Assembly: GCA_903907555.1 (NCBI GenBank)
Contig: CAIVOO010000080.1
Span: 1 to 49,353, forward strand
DNA: 49,353 nucleotides
Direction: 5' to 3'
Origin: an uncultured archaeon
GTDB lineage: Archaea > Nanobdellota > Nanobdellia > Woesearchaeales > CAIVOO01
In this document: positions 11,873 through 15,557 of the stretch, one piece after another
Position numbering within the stretch: the first letter of the stretch is position 1
Layout of the letters: every line of letters starts with the position of its first letter
Translations under genes and position numbers: made by a program
Notes under the pieces: model-generated
What the model saw: only the letters and a program-made list of their open reading frames with translations
Told to the model about the DNA's origin: nothing
The model's database searches: none

Positions 11873-12541
11873 CTATTTTTTGAAACAATAAATTATTGCG
11901 ATTAGCAGGGACAGATAACCTAGCATGTGGATGCCTTCTGCAAGCGGGTCTATTCTGCCGTTATAATTTGCTATTATATAGAATACATGCGCTATCGTTT
12001 GCAGCAGGAACGAAAGGAAAACAAACAATGAAGCCATGTGCTTTTTCTTGTTGTAGTTTTCAAAGAACACAGATGTGATGAATCCAAGAATGATTATTGA
12101 TAGTATGTGAAGGAGAACTATTTCCTTGTATGCGAACAAAGCGAATAAGAACGTGAATACGCAGAACATGCTGACTAATCTTTTGTCATGCACCTTGAAA
12201 ACAAGCATCATCAAAGCCACATAAGCCAGCAATGTTGTCAGTACAAAACCTATCTGCCCAAAATCGATGACAGCAGCCGAGCGCATAGCCTCCATTATGC
12301 TTTCCCTTGCTTCAGAGCGGATTATCAATTCAGCAGCAATCTTGCTGATGAAAGATAAAGCGATGAATGCGAAAGACAATCCGAAAAAGAAGAATTTTCT
12401 ATCCTTGGTGAGCTTGTAAGCCTTGTAAGTTGCGCCTATGATTATTAAAGATATGACTAAAGAAATCATCTCAGGTACAGAGTTTATCGGGTTGAACCAT
12501 TCCGGCCCTAATAGAACTATTGCCATACAACTACTTCGCAA
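11873..12541 (-). CDS. Integral membrane protein
   Basis: About 7 hydrophobic segments. The true start may be the second Met (MAIVLL...). Confidence 0.65.
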   Translation of the reverse strand: MRSSCMAIVLLGPEWFNPINSVPEMISLVISLIIIGATYKAYKLTKDRKFFFFGLSFAFIALSFISKIAAELIIRSEARESIMEAMRSAAVIDFGQIGFVLTTLLAYVALMMLVFKVHDKRLVSMFCVFTFLFALFAYKEIVLLHILSIIILGFITSVFFENYNKKKHMASLFVFLSFLLQTIAHVFYIIANYNGRIDPLAEGIHMLGYLSLLIAIIYCFKK

Positions 12542-12623
12542 AATTCATTTATAAGCTTTGTGGATTTGGCTTCTCTATCAGCCCTTCATAACGCATTAAT
12601 AAACCCTCTGCCTAGCTAGGTAT

Positions 12624-12790
12624 ACACTCATCCAAACACTTCCCCTACCTCGCACTTGATGCGGGGACGGGATTTATGTTCATCGAAAACACCTCACCCC
12701 AGTCCTTGCAAAAGGCTGGGATTATACTCATCCAAAACACCTCCCCTGAACTCGCGCAAGCGAGGGAGAGGATTTTCTTTTTTTTATTTT
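12624..12790 (+). ncRNA. Candidate structured RNA: three tandem ~50-nt units (conserved 5' box plus hairpin) ending in a T-run
   Basis: Units 12626-12677, 12678-12725 and 12726-12773 share (A/G)(C/T)TCATC(C/G)AAA(A)CAC(C/T)TC. Each is followed by a different but self-complementary hairpin, two with GCAA loops. ATTAATAAA lies ~27 nt upstream and ttttcttttttttttatttt follows. The strand is uncertain. Confidence 0.45.
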
Positions 12791-12848
12791 CAGCTGAGAT
12801 TGAATAAAACAACACAAGGGGTGATCAAAATGTAATATCCGCGGGTCT

Positions 12849-12868
12849 GAAATGGCCCGCCATTTCAT
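12849..12868 (-). terminator. Hairpin after the 12882..13217 gene
   Basis: gaaatggc-cc-gccatttc inverted repeat lying 14 nt beyond the stop codon. Confidence 0.3.
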
Positions 12869-12881
12869 CTATTCTTTAGAA

Positions 12882-13217
12882 CTAATATCCTCTTCGCCAT
12901 CTTTTGCCAATTGCTTCCAACCTTATATCCTCTTCTTCTGGAGTTAATGGCCTGAACTCTTCACCATTAATATCTTTATACATTTCATATAATTCCTTCA
13001 GAGGAACCCTGTAAATTGCATTCTTATATCGCGGATTTTCTGGATTGAAGTTTGCAACTCTTTCATTATGTATAACAATAACCAACCTACTTTTTTCAAT
13101 TTTCTTTTCAGTAGCATCTGTTAAAAGTCTTTCAAGAACGTCATGTTGAATTTCGCCGTTAGGCCATTCGAGCATCTCGTCAGAACCTTCCAGTCTTATT
13201 GCACGTTTAGTCGCCAT
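12882..13217 (-). CDS. Hypothetical protein
   Basis: 111-aa ORF with coding-like composition and no recognised motif. Confidence 0.55.
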   Translation of the reverse strand: MATKRAIRLEGSDEMLEWPNGEIQHDVLERLLTDATEKKIEKSRLVIVIHNERVANFNPENPRYKNAIYRVPLKELYEMYKDINGEEFRPLTPEEEDIRLEAIGKRWRRGY

Positions 13218-14392: not shown

Positions 14393-14573
14393 ACATTATC
14401 CTGAATATTACTCCTATATAAATGTTTCGTTTATTTACTACTGTAAGGTGACATAGTTATTGTCCCTGAATCATACGACATCTTGCCTTAATTCACCACA
14501 ACCCACTGGACATTGCTCGAAATGGCGTATTTAAACGACTTCTGCCTAATTGAATATGAAAGAGGTGATTGGT

Positions 14574-14702
14574 ATGAAAATGACAGTATATGATGCGAGA
14601 AAAGAGGTGTTTGGCGTTGGAGAGATATCCCCGAAATTCCAGAGCAAGATACATGAGCTATTTTATCAGCAAACGAAAGCAGTGACAATGGGCAGGAGGT
14701 AA
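14574..14702 (+). CDS. Micro-ORF (42 aa) with a strong SD
   Basis: AGAGGTGATTGGT precedes ATG 14574. Below the track's size cut-off. Its stop TAA sits 1 nt before the next ATG. Confidence 0.4.
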   Translation: MKMTVYDARKEVFGVGEISPKFQSKIHELFYQQTKAVTMGRR

Positions 14703-14703
14703 A

Positions 14704-14847
14704 ATGGCGATAAGTATAGAAAAGATTGGAAACTACGACTTTTACTCAATTGATGGAATAGAAAGAGACAGCGATGACGACGAGATAGACTTCCTGGAAG
14801 AGGGATTCATGAAAGGCTATCTGGAGGCAGACAATATAGACCGCTAG
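14704..14847 (+). CDS. Micro-ORF (47 aa), acidic
   Basis: GGAGGTAAA precedes ATG 14704. The sequence is MAISIEKIGNYDFYSIDGIERDSDDDEIDFLEEGFMKGYLEADNIDR. Confidence 0.45.
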   Translation: MAISIEKIGNYDFYSIDGIERDSDDDEIDFLEEGFMKGYLEADNIDR

Positions 14848-14924: not shown

Positions 14925-15557
14925 ATGGAAAAATCTAACAAAATTAAAAAATTATATTTTGCATCATCTAATAAAGCTAAATTAAAAAGATTGCAAACAA
15001 TACTTGCTGAAGTCGATAAAAACATTAAAATCGAATTAGTTCCCGATTACATAGATGTTGAGGAGAAAGGCAAAGATGTTTTGGAAAATGCGGTGATGAA
15101 AGTTTTGCCTTACAAGAGCAAGTATAAAATTCCTGTACTCGGGATGGATACAGCAGTGTTCTTTGAGGGAGAAGATTTTGACCCGACTCACATTAAAAGG
15201 GTGGCATTAAAGGGCATGGACGAATCAAAATTATCGCAAAAAGAAATTGCAGAAAAGATTAAAGATTTTTATGTAAAGCTTGCGAAAAAATATGGAGGTG
15301 AGAAGGAATTCTATTTCGAAGACGGCTGGGCAATTTTATTTCCAGACGGCTCTATTGAAAAAATAAGCTATAAGAGAGAATACATTATGACTGATAAAAT
15401 ACGCGGGCAACTGGACATATTTTTCCCTATGCGTTCGTTGTATATTGTTAAAGCAACTAAAAAAAGTCCAACTGAGCAAACACTTGAAGAAGAATTGTTG
15501 GAATTGAAGCCGCAAATCGAAGCATTCAAAAAGTTGCTCAAGTTTATATACAACTGA
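14925..15557 (+). CDS. Possible Ham1/ITPase-like non-canonical NTP pyrophosphatase
   Basis: The N-terminal YFASSNKAKLKRL and VLGMDTAV weakly resemble the ATGNxxK / DDSGL layout of Ham1-family proteins. Confidence 0.4.
   Translation: MEKSNKIKKLYFASSNKAKLKRLQTILAEVDKNIKIELVPDYIDVEEKGKDVLENAVMKVLPYKSKYKIPVLGMDTAVFFEGEDFDPTHIKRVALKGMDESKLSQKEIAEKIKDFYVKLAKKYGGEKEFYFEDGWAILFPDGSIEKISYKREYIMTDKIRGQLDIFFPMRSLYIVKATKKSPTEQTLEEELLELKPQIEAFKKLLKFIYN

Follow-up and report, generated by a model that had tools for sequence, protein, structure and literature searches.

Three tandem anti-initiation boxes in a woesearchaeal genome: a probable plus-strand small RNA gene and its syntenic relatives

Introduction

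The window analyzed here is a 49,353-nucleotide (nt) stretch of DNA, the whole of contig CAIVOO010000080.1 (C80 in our numbering) of assembly GCA_903907555.1, from an uncultured archaeon of the Woesearchaeales (GTDB CAIVOO01) whose genome of 1.18 Mb has 40% G+C and is 98% complete. Within it, an intergenic stretch (12542-12881) that is flanked by two minus-strand genes, the start of a DUF5985-like membrane protein gene on one side and the end of a gene for a protein of 111 amino acids (aa) on the other, harbors a tandem array of three boxes and three hairpins. The array is best read as a tandemly expanded member of a family that appears to have been kept across the Woesearchaeota, divergent from the DUF5985-like gene, with a putative core in which an anti-Shine-Dalgarno (anti-SD) sequence, ACACCUC(C), sits in a loop or linker and a hairpin and a U-run come next. 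It is the comparative strand evidence that makes a plus-strand small RNA (sRNA) gene of ~160 nt the best reading of the window copy, whose boxes would repress the translation of messenger RNAs (mRNAs) led by an SD sequence. We give this reading as a whole a probability of about 0.6; our belief is firmer, at about 0.8, for the plus strand as the functional one, and lower for the trans-repressor mechanism.

Anatomy of the array

The three units measure 52, 48 and 48 nt and lie at 12626-12771. Each opens with a box that reads TCATCSAAA(A)CACYTC on the plus strand, with matches at 12628, 12680 and 12728; the pattern is found three times in the window and not once in 100 shuffles of it, and in its strict form it has no further match elsewhere in the 1.18-Mb genome. 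Box 1 (ACTCATCCAAACACTTCCCC; 12626..12645) contains the anti-start CAT (12629-12631) and, at 12637-12643, CACTTCC, a weakened form of the anti-SD. In box 2 (GTTCATCGAAAACACCTCACC; 12678..12698) the corresponding elements are CAT at 12681-12683 and CACCTC at 12690-12695, and in box 3 (ACTCATCCAAAACACCTCCCC; 12726..12746) they are CAT at 12729-12731 and CACCTCC at 12738-12744. At the level of the shorter core, two boxes hold an exact ACACCTC and one holds ACACTTC.

Each box is followed by a G+C-rich hairpin on the same strand. Hairpin 1 (12643..12671; -15.9 kcal/mol) combines an outer CCC/GGG with an inner stem of CCTCGCA and TGCGGGG around the loop CTTGA, and includes one U.G pair. Hairpin 2 (12698..12720; -14.1 kcal/mol) is formed from CCCAG-t-CCTT and AAGG-CTGGG, closed by a GCAA loop of the GNRA type. 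The last, hairpin 3 (12740..12771; -15.4 kcal/mol), is the presumed terminator hairpin, in which an outer CCTCCCC/GGAGAGG stem with one C.A mismatch encloses an inner CTCGC/GCAA/GCGAG; it overlaps part of the anti-SD of box 3. Behind it lies a T-run (TTTTCTTTTTTTTATTTT; 12773..12790) that contains a run of eight T and is likely to be the archaeal termination signal of the RNA. The sequence and coordinates of the units, the pairing of the hairpin arms, the TATA-like element upstream and the T-run downstream are all as an initial annotation of the locus had described them.

Units 1 and 3 are ~80% identical along their full length, and the flanks of unit 2 can be aligned both with the sequence ahead of unit 1 and with that behind unit 3. 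A ~100-nt element with the order box-hairpin A-box-hairpin B is therefore present in two copies. When the stems of units 1 and 3 are compared, single substitutions and indels are seen, without double compensatory changes, and a wholly different stem is present in hairpin 2 only, which shares its GCAA loop with hairpin 3. The initial annotation had seen covariation, and with it structural selection, in the differences among the three units, which was an over-reading: covariation cannot be tested statistically inside the array because there are only three copies and units 1 and 3 are recent duplicates. All public contigs of the species are identical over the locus, and so provide no strain variants for such a test either. 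The boxes of the array have changed far less than the stems of its hairpins, a pattern that speaks against neutral decay. The array is covered at 100% identity by independent contigs from two sediment metagenome runs, and is not an assembly artefact, since the two independent assemblies agree.

Conservation across the Woesearchaeota

Homologues of the array, whose absence anywhere would have counted against it in the initial annotation, exist at syntenic loci. Strict patterns for the box or for tandem boxes, applied to 301 + 401 genomes of the order and to JGI metagenome contigs, returned only antisense gene starts or chance matches, and a BLAST search of the region against relatives returned matches to the T-run only. 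These strict patterns were too narrow for the real homologues, which were recovered by synteny. The DUF5985-like membrane gene, present in 209 of the 401 sampled genomes, served as the anchor, and 80 regions upstream of it were taken, that of the window included. Two candidates for an extra copy or target, C18:4055 inside a glycosidase gene and C128:63 at the end of a coding region, were rejected as chance matches.

Across these 80 regions, ACACCTC occurs at 24 sites on the divergent (plus-equivalent) strand; these sites belong to 20 loci of 11 GTDB families and compare with three sites on the other strand and ~1.6 expected per strand (binomial p 5e-5); control words, made by reversing or scrambling ACACCTC, occur 0-2 times. 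A run of at least five T follows on the same strand within 150 nt of 22 of the 24 sites, whereas a run of at least five A does so behind only six. A promoter motif, CAYAA-N2-5-TATA (CATAAYGTATTWATAAA), is found in 16 of the 80 loci and has a box downstream in 13 of them, compared with 7 of the 64 other loci (Fisher p 1e-7). The stretch from box to T-run also folds better than its shuffles (mean z -2.6, with 14 of 19 below -1.5). From these strand-specific counts it follows that the conserved entity is a promoter-anti-SD-hairpin-U-run unit on the plus-equivalent strand, which bears out the plus-strand sRNA with CCUCC-type motifs that had been one of two proposals in the initial annotation. The position that defines this woesearchaeal family, divergent from the membrane gene at about 100-250 nt from its start, is also that of the array, which begins 100 nt from the ATG of the membrane gene and on the opposite strand.

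In family f135, an alignment of four genomes gives a hairpin with a C-rich loop, an invariant unpaired AAACACCUC, a terminator hairpin and a U-run. Here AAACACCTC is invariant in the unpaired linker between the two hairpins, and six pairs keep pairing through changes on both sides. In f135, f77, f16 and other families the promoter, box and terminator occur without any small open reading frame (sORF). Locus L073 likewise has no open reading frame (ORF), and carries two C-rich boxes, a hairpin and T5. The closest relative found is a 1.8-kb ENA contig that encodes a 111-aa protein 58% identical to that of the window and has GGGAATTCATACTCATCC between two hairpins, in the same orientation.

Elsewhere an sORF is part of the arrangement. 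In the relatives L033, L034, L036 and L037 the promoter motif CCCTTCATAA-N4-TATA stands ahead of the membrane gene on the divergent strand, and a leaderless sORF, M(K/R)IV(R/K)(V/L)F..., begins at exactly 20 nt beyond the TATA, in the place that the array occupies in the window; in L033, L036 and L037 this sORF is followed by a single AACACCT box and a hairpin. L078 and L087 have a 41-aa SD-led sORF and then AAATCATCAATCTCAACACCTCTTTT-[hairpin]-TTTTATG-CTCACTCAAACACCTCTCC-[hairpin]-TTTTAGG; the box CTCACTCAAACACCTCTCC of the tandem units in L087/L099 agrees with the window box at 15 of 20 positions, and box 3 of the window agrees with boxes of other genomes at 15-17 of about 21. In many Woesearchaeota (L087, L098, L099, L100, L113 and others) the membrane gene stands divergent from the gene of a conserved small SD-led protein of ~40 aa (MKY..DLLAI..LL.AG.I..EA..MR.Y...), with anti-SD units behind that small gene in some genomes. 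The genome that contains the window has no copy of either the 41-aa SD-led sORF or the leaderless sORF. A minus-strand mini-ORF of the window (MSIIPAF...) resembles the N-terminus of the relatives' leaderless sORF, but on the other strand, and the likeness is probably a coincidence.

The syntenic loci, such as L087/L099, L088/L092/L093/L097, L124/L126, L130-L132, L090, L146 and L162, share with the window the position and the promoter motif, and on the same strand they have the ACACCUC(C) core, a hairpin and a U-run. They differ from it in that most have one or two boxes and no anti-AUG, and in some of them the box lies in a hairpin loop or behind a small ORF; the hairpin sequences are unrelated between families. 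Among the syntenic loci found, three full boxes complementary to an initiation region occur in the window only.

A second, single-unit copy can be discerned in the same genome, on contig C90 at about 15100-15260 of the plus strand, with a box unit GCTCATCTAAACACCTC and a hairpin. In order, it shows a TATA-like GATTTATATATAAG, a hairpin, a box GCTCATCTAAACACCTCTTT, a hairpin AAACGCC-TGAATAAG-GGCGTTT and then TTTTATTCTCATACACCCCC. It lies between two minus-strand genes, and its opposite strand gives only ORFs of 2 and 11 codons.

Promoter, transcript and strand

The predicted promoter of the RNA (12582..12603, plus strand) comprises CCCTTCATAA, which has AA at the position of the B recognition element (BRE; 12590-12591), 4 nt, and the TATA box TTAATAAA at 12596-12603. 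Read as a whole, CATAACGCATTAATAAA, it fits the family motif CAYAA-N2-5-(T)TTWATAAA on the same strand, and its orthologues in relatives drive transcripts on the plus-equivalent strand. A position weight matrix (PWM) was learned from the leaderless genes of the genome, with crude ORF starts; their promoter profile has AA at -34/-33 (BRE) and TTTAWAAA at -30..-23 relative to the ATG. With this matrix the plus-strand TATA scores 6.9 and predicts a start at 12626. The TATA-to-start spacing of leaderless genes, taken together with the orthologous promoters, places the predicted start of transcription at 12624..12626, and box 1 would therefore stand at the very 5' end of the RNA.

Across families, a bidirectional promoter region of ~70 bp (12542-12603 in the window, and its counterparts at the syntenic loci) is strikingly conserved, in the form CCCTTTATAAAC-TTTGTGGATT-..GTTCTTTA..-CCTTTCATAAYGTATTTATAAA, which points to a regulator-binding architecture common to the membrane gene and the RNA.

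At the locus itself the signs of strand are mixed, and it is comparison with other genomes, rather than the locus alone, that appears to decide the strand. The boxes are mostly unpaired in the plus-strand RNA (probabilities of 0.63, 0.64 and 0.73 for boxes 1 to 3) and mostly paired in the minus-strand RNA (0.21-0.45), and the two GNRA loops are present on the plus strand only. Both strands of the array fold about equally well, and folding energy is uninformative on strand, as the better fold belongs to the G-rich strand in 12 of 19 family segments. The G.U pairs favor plus in hairpin 1 and minus in hairpins 2 and 3. Runs of eight T are equally uninformative, since genome-wide 11 of them stand after the end of a gene and 15 after a gene start.

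Downstream of the T-run, an SD-like GGGGTGATC precedes by 3 nt an ATG-TAA start-stop (12818..12835, plus strand), which would be part of the RNA only if termination were leaky. In a fold of 12624-12880 the GGGGUG of this site pairs with the CACCUC of box 2 (z -3.7). Read as its reverse complement, GATCACCCCTT, the site resembles the 16S 3' end.

Complementarity to translation initiation regions

The likeness of the box to the anti-SD of 16S ribosomal RNA (rRNA), as first noted from sequence, agrees with the 3' end of the 16S rRNA in this genome, GGAUCACCUCCU. Most genes of the organism lack an SD, but roughly a quarter to a third carry one of the GGAGGUG type, and SD-led genes mostly read GGAGGUGUUUU-N-AUG, as do those at C92:3080, C118:15062 and C79:5038. 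Genome-wide, GAGGTG-N4-6-ATG opens a long ORF in 63 of 72 cases. The opposite strand of the units reads GGAGGTG-N6-ATG, GAGGTG-N6-ATG and GAAGTG-N5-ATG, so that an SD followed at N5/6 by ATG is present in all three, as had been described. The reverse complement of each box is thus a complete translation initiation region (TIR) of average quality: by PWM the boxes rank at the 46th-63rd percentile among real SD-led TIRs and exceed the 99.9th percentile of the window background. Taken by itself, this complementarity fits minus-strand initiation regions and plus-strand anti-TIR sequences equally.

Proposed mode of action

In the mechanism that we propose, the BRE/TATA promoter (12582-12603) would start a plus-strand transcript at about 12624, which would end at the T-run behind hairpin 3, at about 12785, to give an RNA of roughly 160 nt. 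This RNA would consist of three modules, each with a largely single-stranded box of ~20 nt and then a G+C-rich hairpin that would keep the boxes apart and exposed. The box would be complementary to a whole TIR, as it offers the anti-SD CACCUCC, a spacer complementary to U/A, and the anti-AUG CAU. By pairing with the SD and start regions of SD-led mRNAs the boxes may block binding of the 30S subunit, and the RNA would then act as a translational repressor; the best of the predicted duplexes with SD-led starts have energies of -22 to -27 kcal/mol. In its threefold form with full-length anti-TIR boxes, the array would be a lineage-specific elaboration of a woesearchaeal family with an anti-SD-only core, brought about by duplication of the ~100-nt unit and by loss of the small ORF that relatives have.

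A number of observations weigh against this reading. Its TATA score of 6.9 is reached at about the 90th percentile of random 100-nt windows, and the same element read backwards scores about equally, at 6.8. The minus-strand hairpins are equally or more stable, and some stem extensions use G.U on the minus strand only. The locus is contained only in DNA runs: an RNA run from a related study has no match, and none of the RNA runs contains the window locus or three related loci. The threefold array occurs in no other genome searched, among either the genomes of the order or the metagenome contigs. With respect to targets, no mRNA of the genome has extended complementarity beyond a generic TIR, the best other match being 21/28 and not at a gene start, and duplexes with SD-led TIRs are modestly better for the boxes than for shuffled boxes (mean -12.7 versus -11.1 kcal/mol, with 24% versus 10% at -15 kcal/mol or below). 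Finally, in several relatives the boxes sit in the 3' untranslated region (3' UTR) of a small ORF, so that an independent role in trans is not assured.

Alternative explanations

This last point leads to an alternative that we consider unlikely, namely that the array is a remnant, tandemly duplicated, of the 3' UTR or terminator of a lost small-ORF transcript, transcribed from the plus strand but without a role in trans, so that it would at most terminate transcription or would once have folded back on the SD of the sORF itself. The tandem box-hairpin units of L087/L099 do come behind the conserved 41-aa SD-led sORF, and in L033, L036 and L037 the box and hairpin behind the leaderless sORF can base-pair with an AGGTG that lies upstream on that transcript. 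That this genome lacks both sORFs, and that the array is species-specific with units 1 and 3 as a recent duplicate, fits such an origin as well. Against it, the boxes are far better conserved than the stems, unlike what neutral decay would leave; the promoter has been retained; the sORF-free loci of f135, f77, f16 and others keep an invariant box between promoter and terminator; and the anti-start CAU stands at the exact spacing in all three boxes of the window.

More ambitious versions of the sRNA reading can also be framed. The RNA could be a global mimic of the 3' tail of 16S rRNA, a three-site sponge that titrates SD-led mRNAs and so shifts the balance between leaderless and SD-led translation, conserved across the Woesearchaeota and co-regulated with the membrane protein through the shared bidirectional promoter; we regard this as rather improbable. 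That the RNA acts on SD-led messages of a host archaeon or of a virus, and not on those of its own cell, is a more remote possibility.

Very unlikely, in our view, is the other proposal of the initial annotation, that of an SD-occluding leader on the minus strand. The array would then be a minus-strand messenger or leader with ribosome binding sites and starts, partly sequestered by hairpins, that drive ORFs of 28, 12 and 11 codons, and these ORFs would regulate the downstream membrane gene or share a transcript with it. The three SD-N5/6-ATG motifs are perfect, with PWM scores typical of real TIRs, and about 90% of such motifs in the genome are real starts; in the minus-strand RNA the TIRs are mostly paired, the first ORF stops 14 nt ahead of the third ATG, and an A-rich TATA-like site on the minus strand scores 6.3, which is also near the 90th percentile of random windows. 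Yet across the homologous sites a start codon stands at SD spacing in only 4 of 24, two of them in the window, and is absent from the other 20. The mini-ORFs are not conserved: opposite-strand ORFs at the homologous sites have 2-44 codons (5-7 in L072) and encode unrelated peptides, and what conservation there is behind the ATG is at the nucleotide level, with frame-breaking indels. The T-runs and the conserved promoter are on the other strand, the predicted minus-strand start, at about 12755, would halve hairpin 3, and the membrane gene has no leader to occlude. This gene is leaderless because its own TATA, at 12547..12554 on the minus strand (PWM 10.3; predicted start at 12525), predicts its ATG; the element, which lies outside the RNA, is kept in relatives.

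The suggestion that the array works as DNA, its ~20-bp direct repeats being regulator sites of the divergent promoters or iteron- or origin recognition box-like elements with incidental hairpins, could draw on the regular 48-52 bp spacing, the unusual conservation of the whole divergent promoter region across families, a winged-helix (HTH_45) gene two genes away and a box fragment just upstream of the divergent gene start in L072, but it is the least probable of the readings, as the boxes lie downstream of the promoter to be regulated and not between the two TATA boxes, their copy number varies from 1 to 3 between genomes, their core is an anti-SD with a strand-specific hairpin and T-run that a double-stranded site does not predict, and there is no skew inflection and no adjacent orc1/cdc6. 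A reading as a replication origin with iterons fails on anatomy.

Further candidate identities were rejected. Plus-strand ORFs of 43 and 59 aa have neither an SD nor a leaderless start and run through the T-run, while units of 52, 48 and 48 nt break the frame of any coding array, with minus-strand peptides that are unrelated to one another. A CRISPR (clustered regularly interspaced short palindromic repeats) array should have near-identical repeats of at least 23 nt and unique, non-palindromic spacers of at least ~25 nt, whereas the repeats here are only 80-85% alike and the "spacers" of 17-23 nt are themselves hairpins. A C/D box guide RNA is excluded by the lack of RUGAUGA/CUGA pairs at guide spacing on either strand, and an H/ACA guide RNA by hairpins of 23-32 nt that have no pockets.

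Neighboring genes

The DUF5985-like membrane gene (11873-12526, minus strand) starts with an ATG at 12526 and has a match to DUF5985. On the other side, the gene of the 111-aa protein (12882-13217, minus strand) has no Pfam or PHROG match. Word-based protein searches with the two array neighbors matched only the query itself in each case, but a representative library contains 44 remote homologues of the 111-aa protein. The gene of its closest homologue (58% identity, L072) adjoins an HTH_45 gene and a DUF5985-like gene. The three genes are therefore linked.

Further along the window, two back-to-back micro-ORFs at 14550-14847 on the plus strand have counterparts beside the membrane gene in L033 and L034 (MTVAEMRKNVFGV...), and in L038 the counterpart is an acidic 27-aa ORF. 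As these counterparts lie beside the membrane gene in relatives, the neighborhood has been rearranged between genera.

Related RNAs and biological significance

The array belongs to no known RNA family as far as Rfam is concerned, as the initial annotation had surmised. Over the array, Rfam at E<=10 gave only chance matches to unrelated families, and small nucleolar RNA-like matches at 12850-12904 were far below threshold; over the window it gave only transfer RNAs; and for 20 related box-bearing loci there was no match at E<=0.1. Among bacteria, several sRNAs with C-rich motifs, such as the CcsR or "cuckoo" RNAs, RsaE/RoxS and LhrC, carry repeated C-rich anti-SD motifs, occur in tandem or in multiple copies and repress many SD-led mRNAs. 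In these sRNAs the motifs are short (UCCC/CCUCC), are usually placed in the loop of a hairpin and lack an anti-start codon. The array resembles them in its repeated anti-SD motifs and tandem modules, but differs in having an anti-AUG, and it has no Rfam match to them.

A closer parallel is provided by the streptococcal cia-dependent small RNAs (csRNAs; ccnA-E), which carry an anti-SD and an anti-AUG in the single-stranded segment that separates two stem-loops (Marx et al. 2010, PMC3091779). Like the array, they combine an unpaired anti-TIR between stem-loops with a terminator hairpin, are multicopy or tandem, and are proposed to block the initiation of translation (PMC3091779). Unlike it, they are bacterial (Firmicutes), depend on a CiaR-dependent sigma-70 promoter and carry one anti-TIR per RNA of ~90 nt, encoded by separate genes, whereas the array is archaeal, with a BRE/TATA promoter and three anti-TIR boxes in one predicted transcript. 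The array matches the csRNA family neither in sequence nor through its Rfam model, and the resemblance would seem to be one of analogy, not of homology.

Within the archaea, sRNA41 of Methanosarcina mazei is described as masking ribosome binding sites (Buddeweg et al. 2018, as summarized in PMC5867862). Going by that description, which also covers loop 2 of sRNA154, it shares with the array an intergenic location in an archaeal genome and a proposed masking of ribosome binding sites on several (polycistronic) mRNAs. It belongs to a different phylum, is experimentally supported and is nitrogen-regulated, and the likeness of the predicted RNA to it is functional; the boxes of the array cover the SD through to the AUG and are repeated three times. 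Membership in either the csRNA or the sRNA41 family is not supported, as there is no model match and the domain or phylum and the promoter type differ.

Woesearchaeota and other DPANN archaea have tiny genomes with few recognizable regulators. We know of no regulatory sRNA described for them, and a literature search found no sRNA work on Woesearchaeota or DPANN. The array appears to represent an undescribed family within a familiar class of regulators, in a lineage on which that search found no sRNA work. The combination of synteny, promoter motif, box and T-run provides a searchable definition from which an RNA family can be built, and the window copy, with its three complete anti-initiation boxes, is both the clearest example and a convenient test object. 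The finding, drawn from sequence comparison throughout, is real and reaches beyond a single genome: if the reading is correct, the promoter-box-terminator unit, present in at least 11 families, would be a simple post-transcriptional switch that acts on the SD-led proteome.

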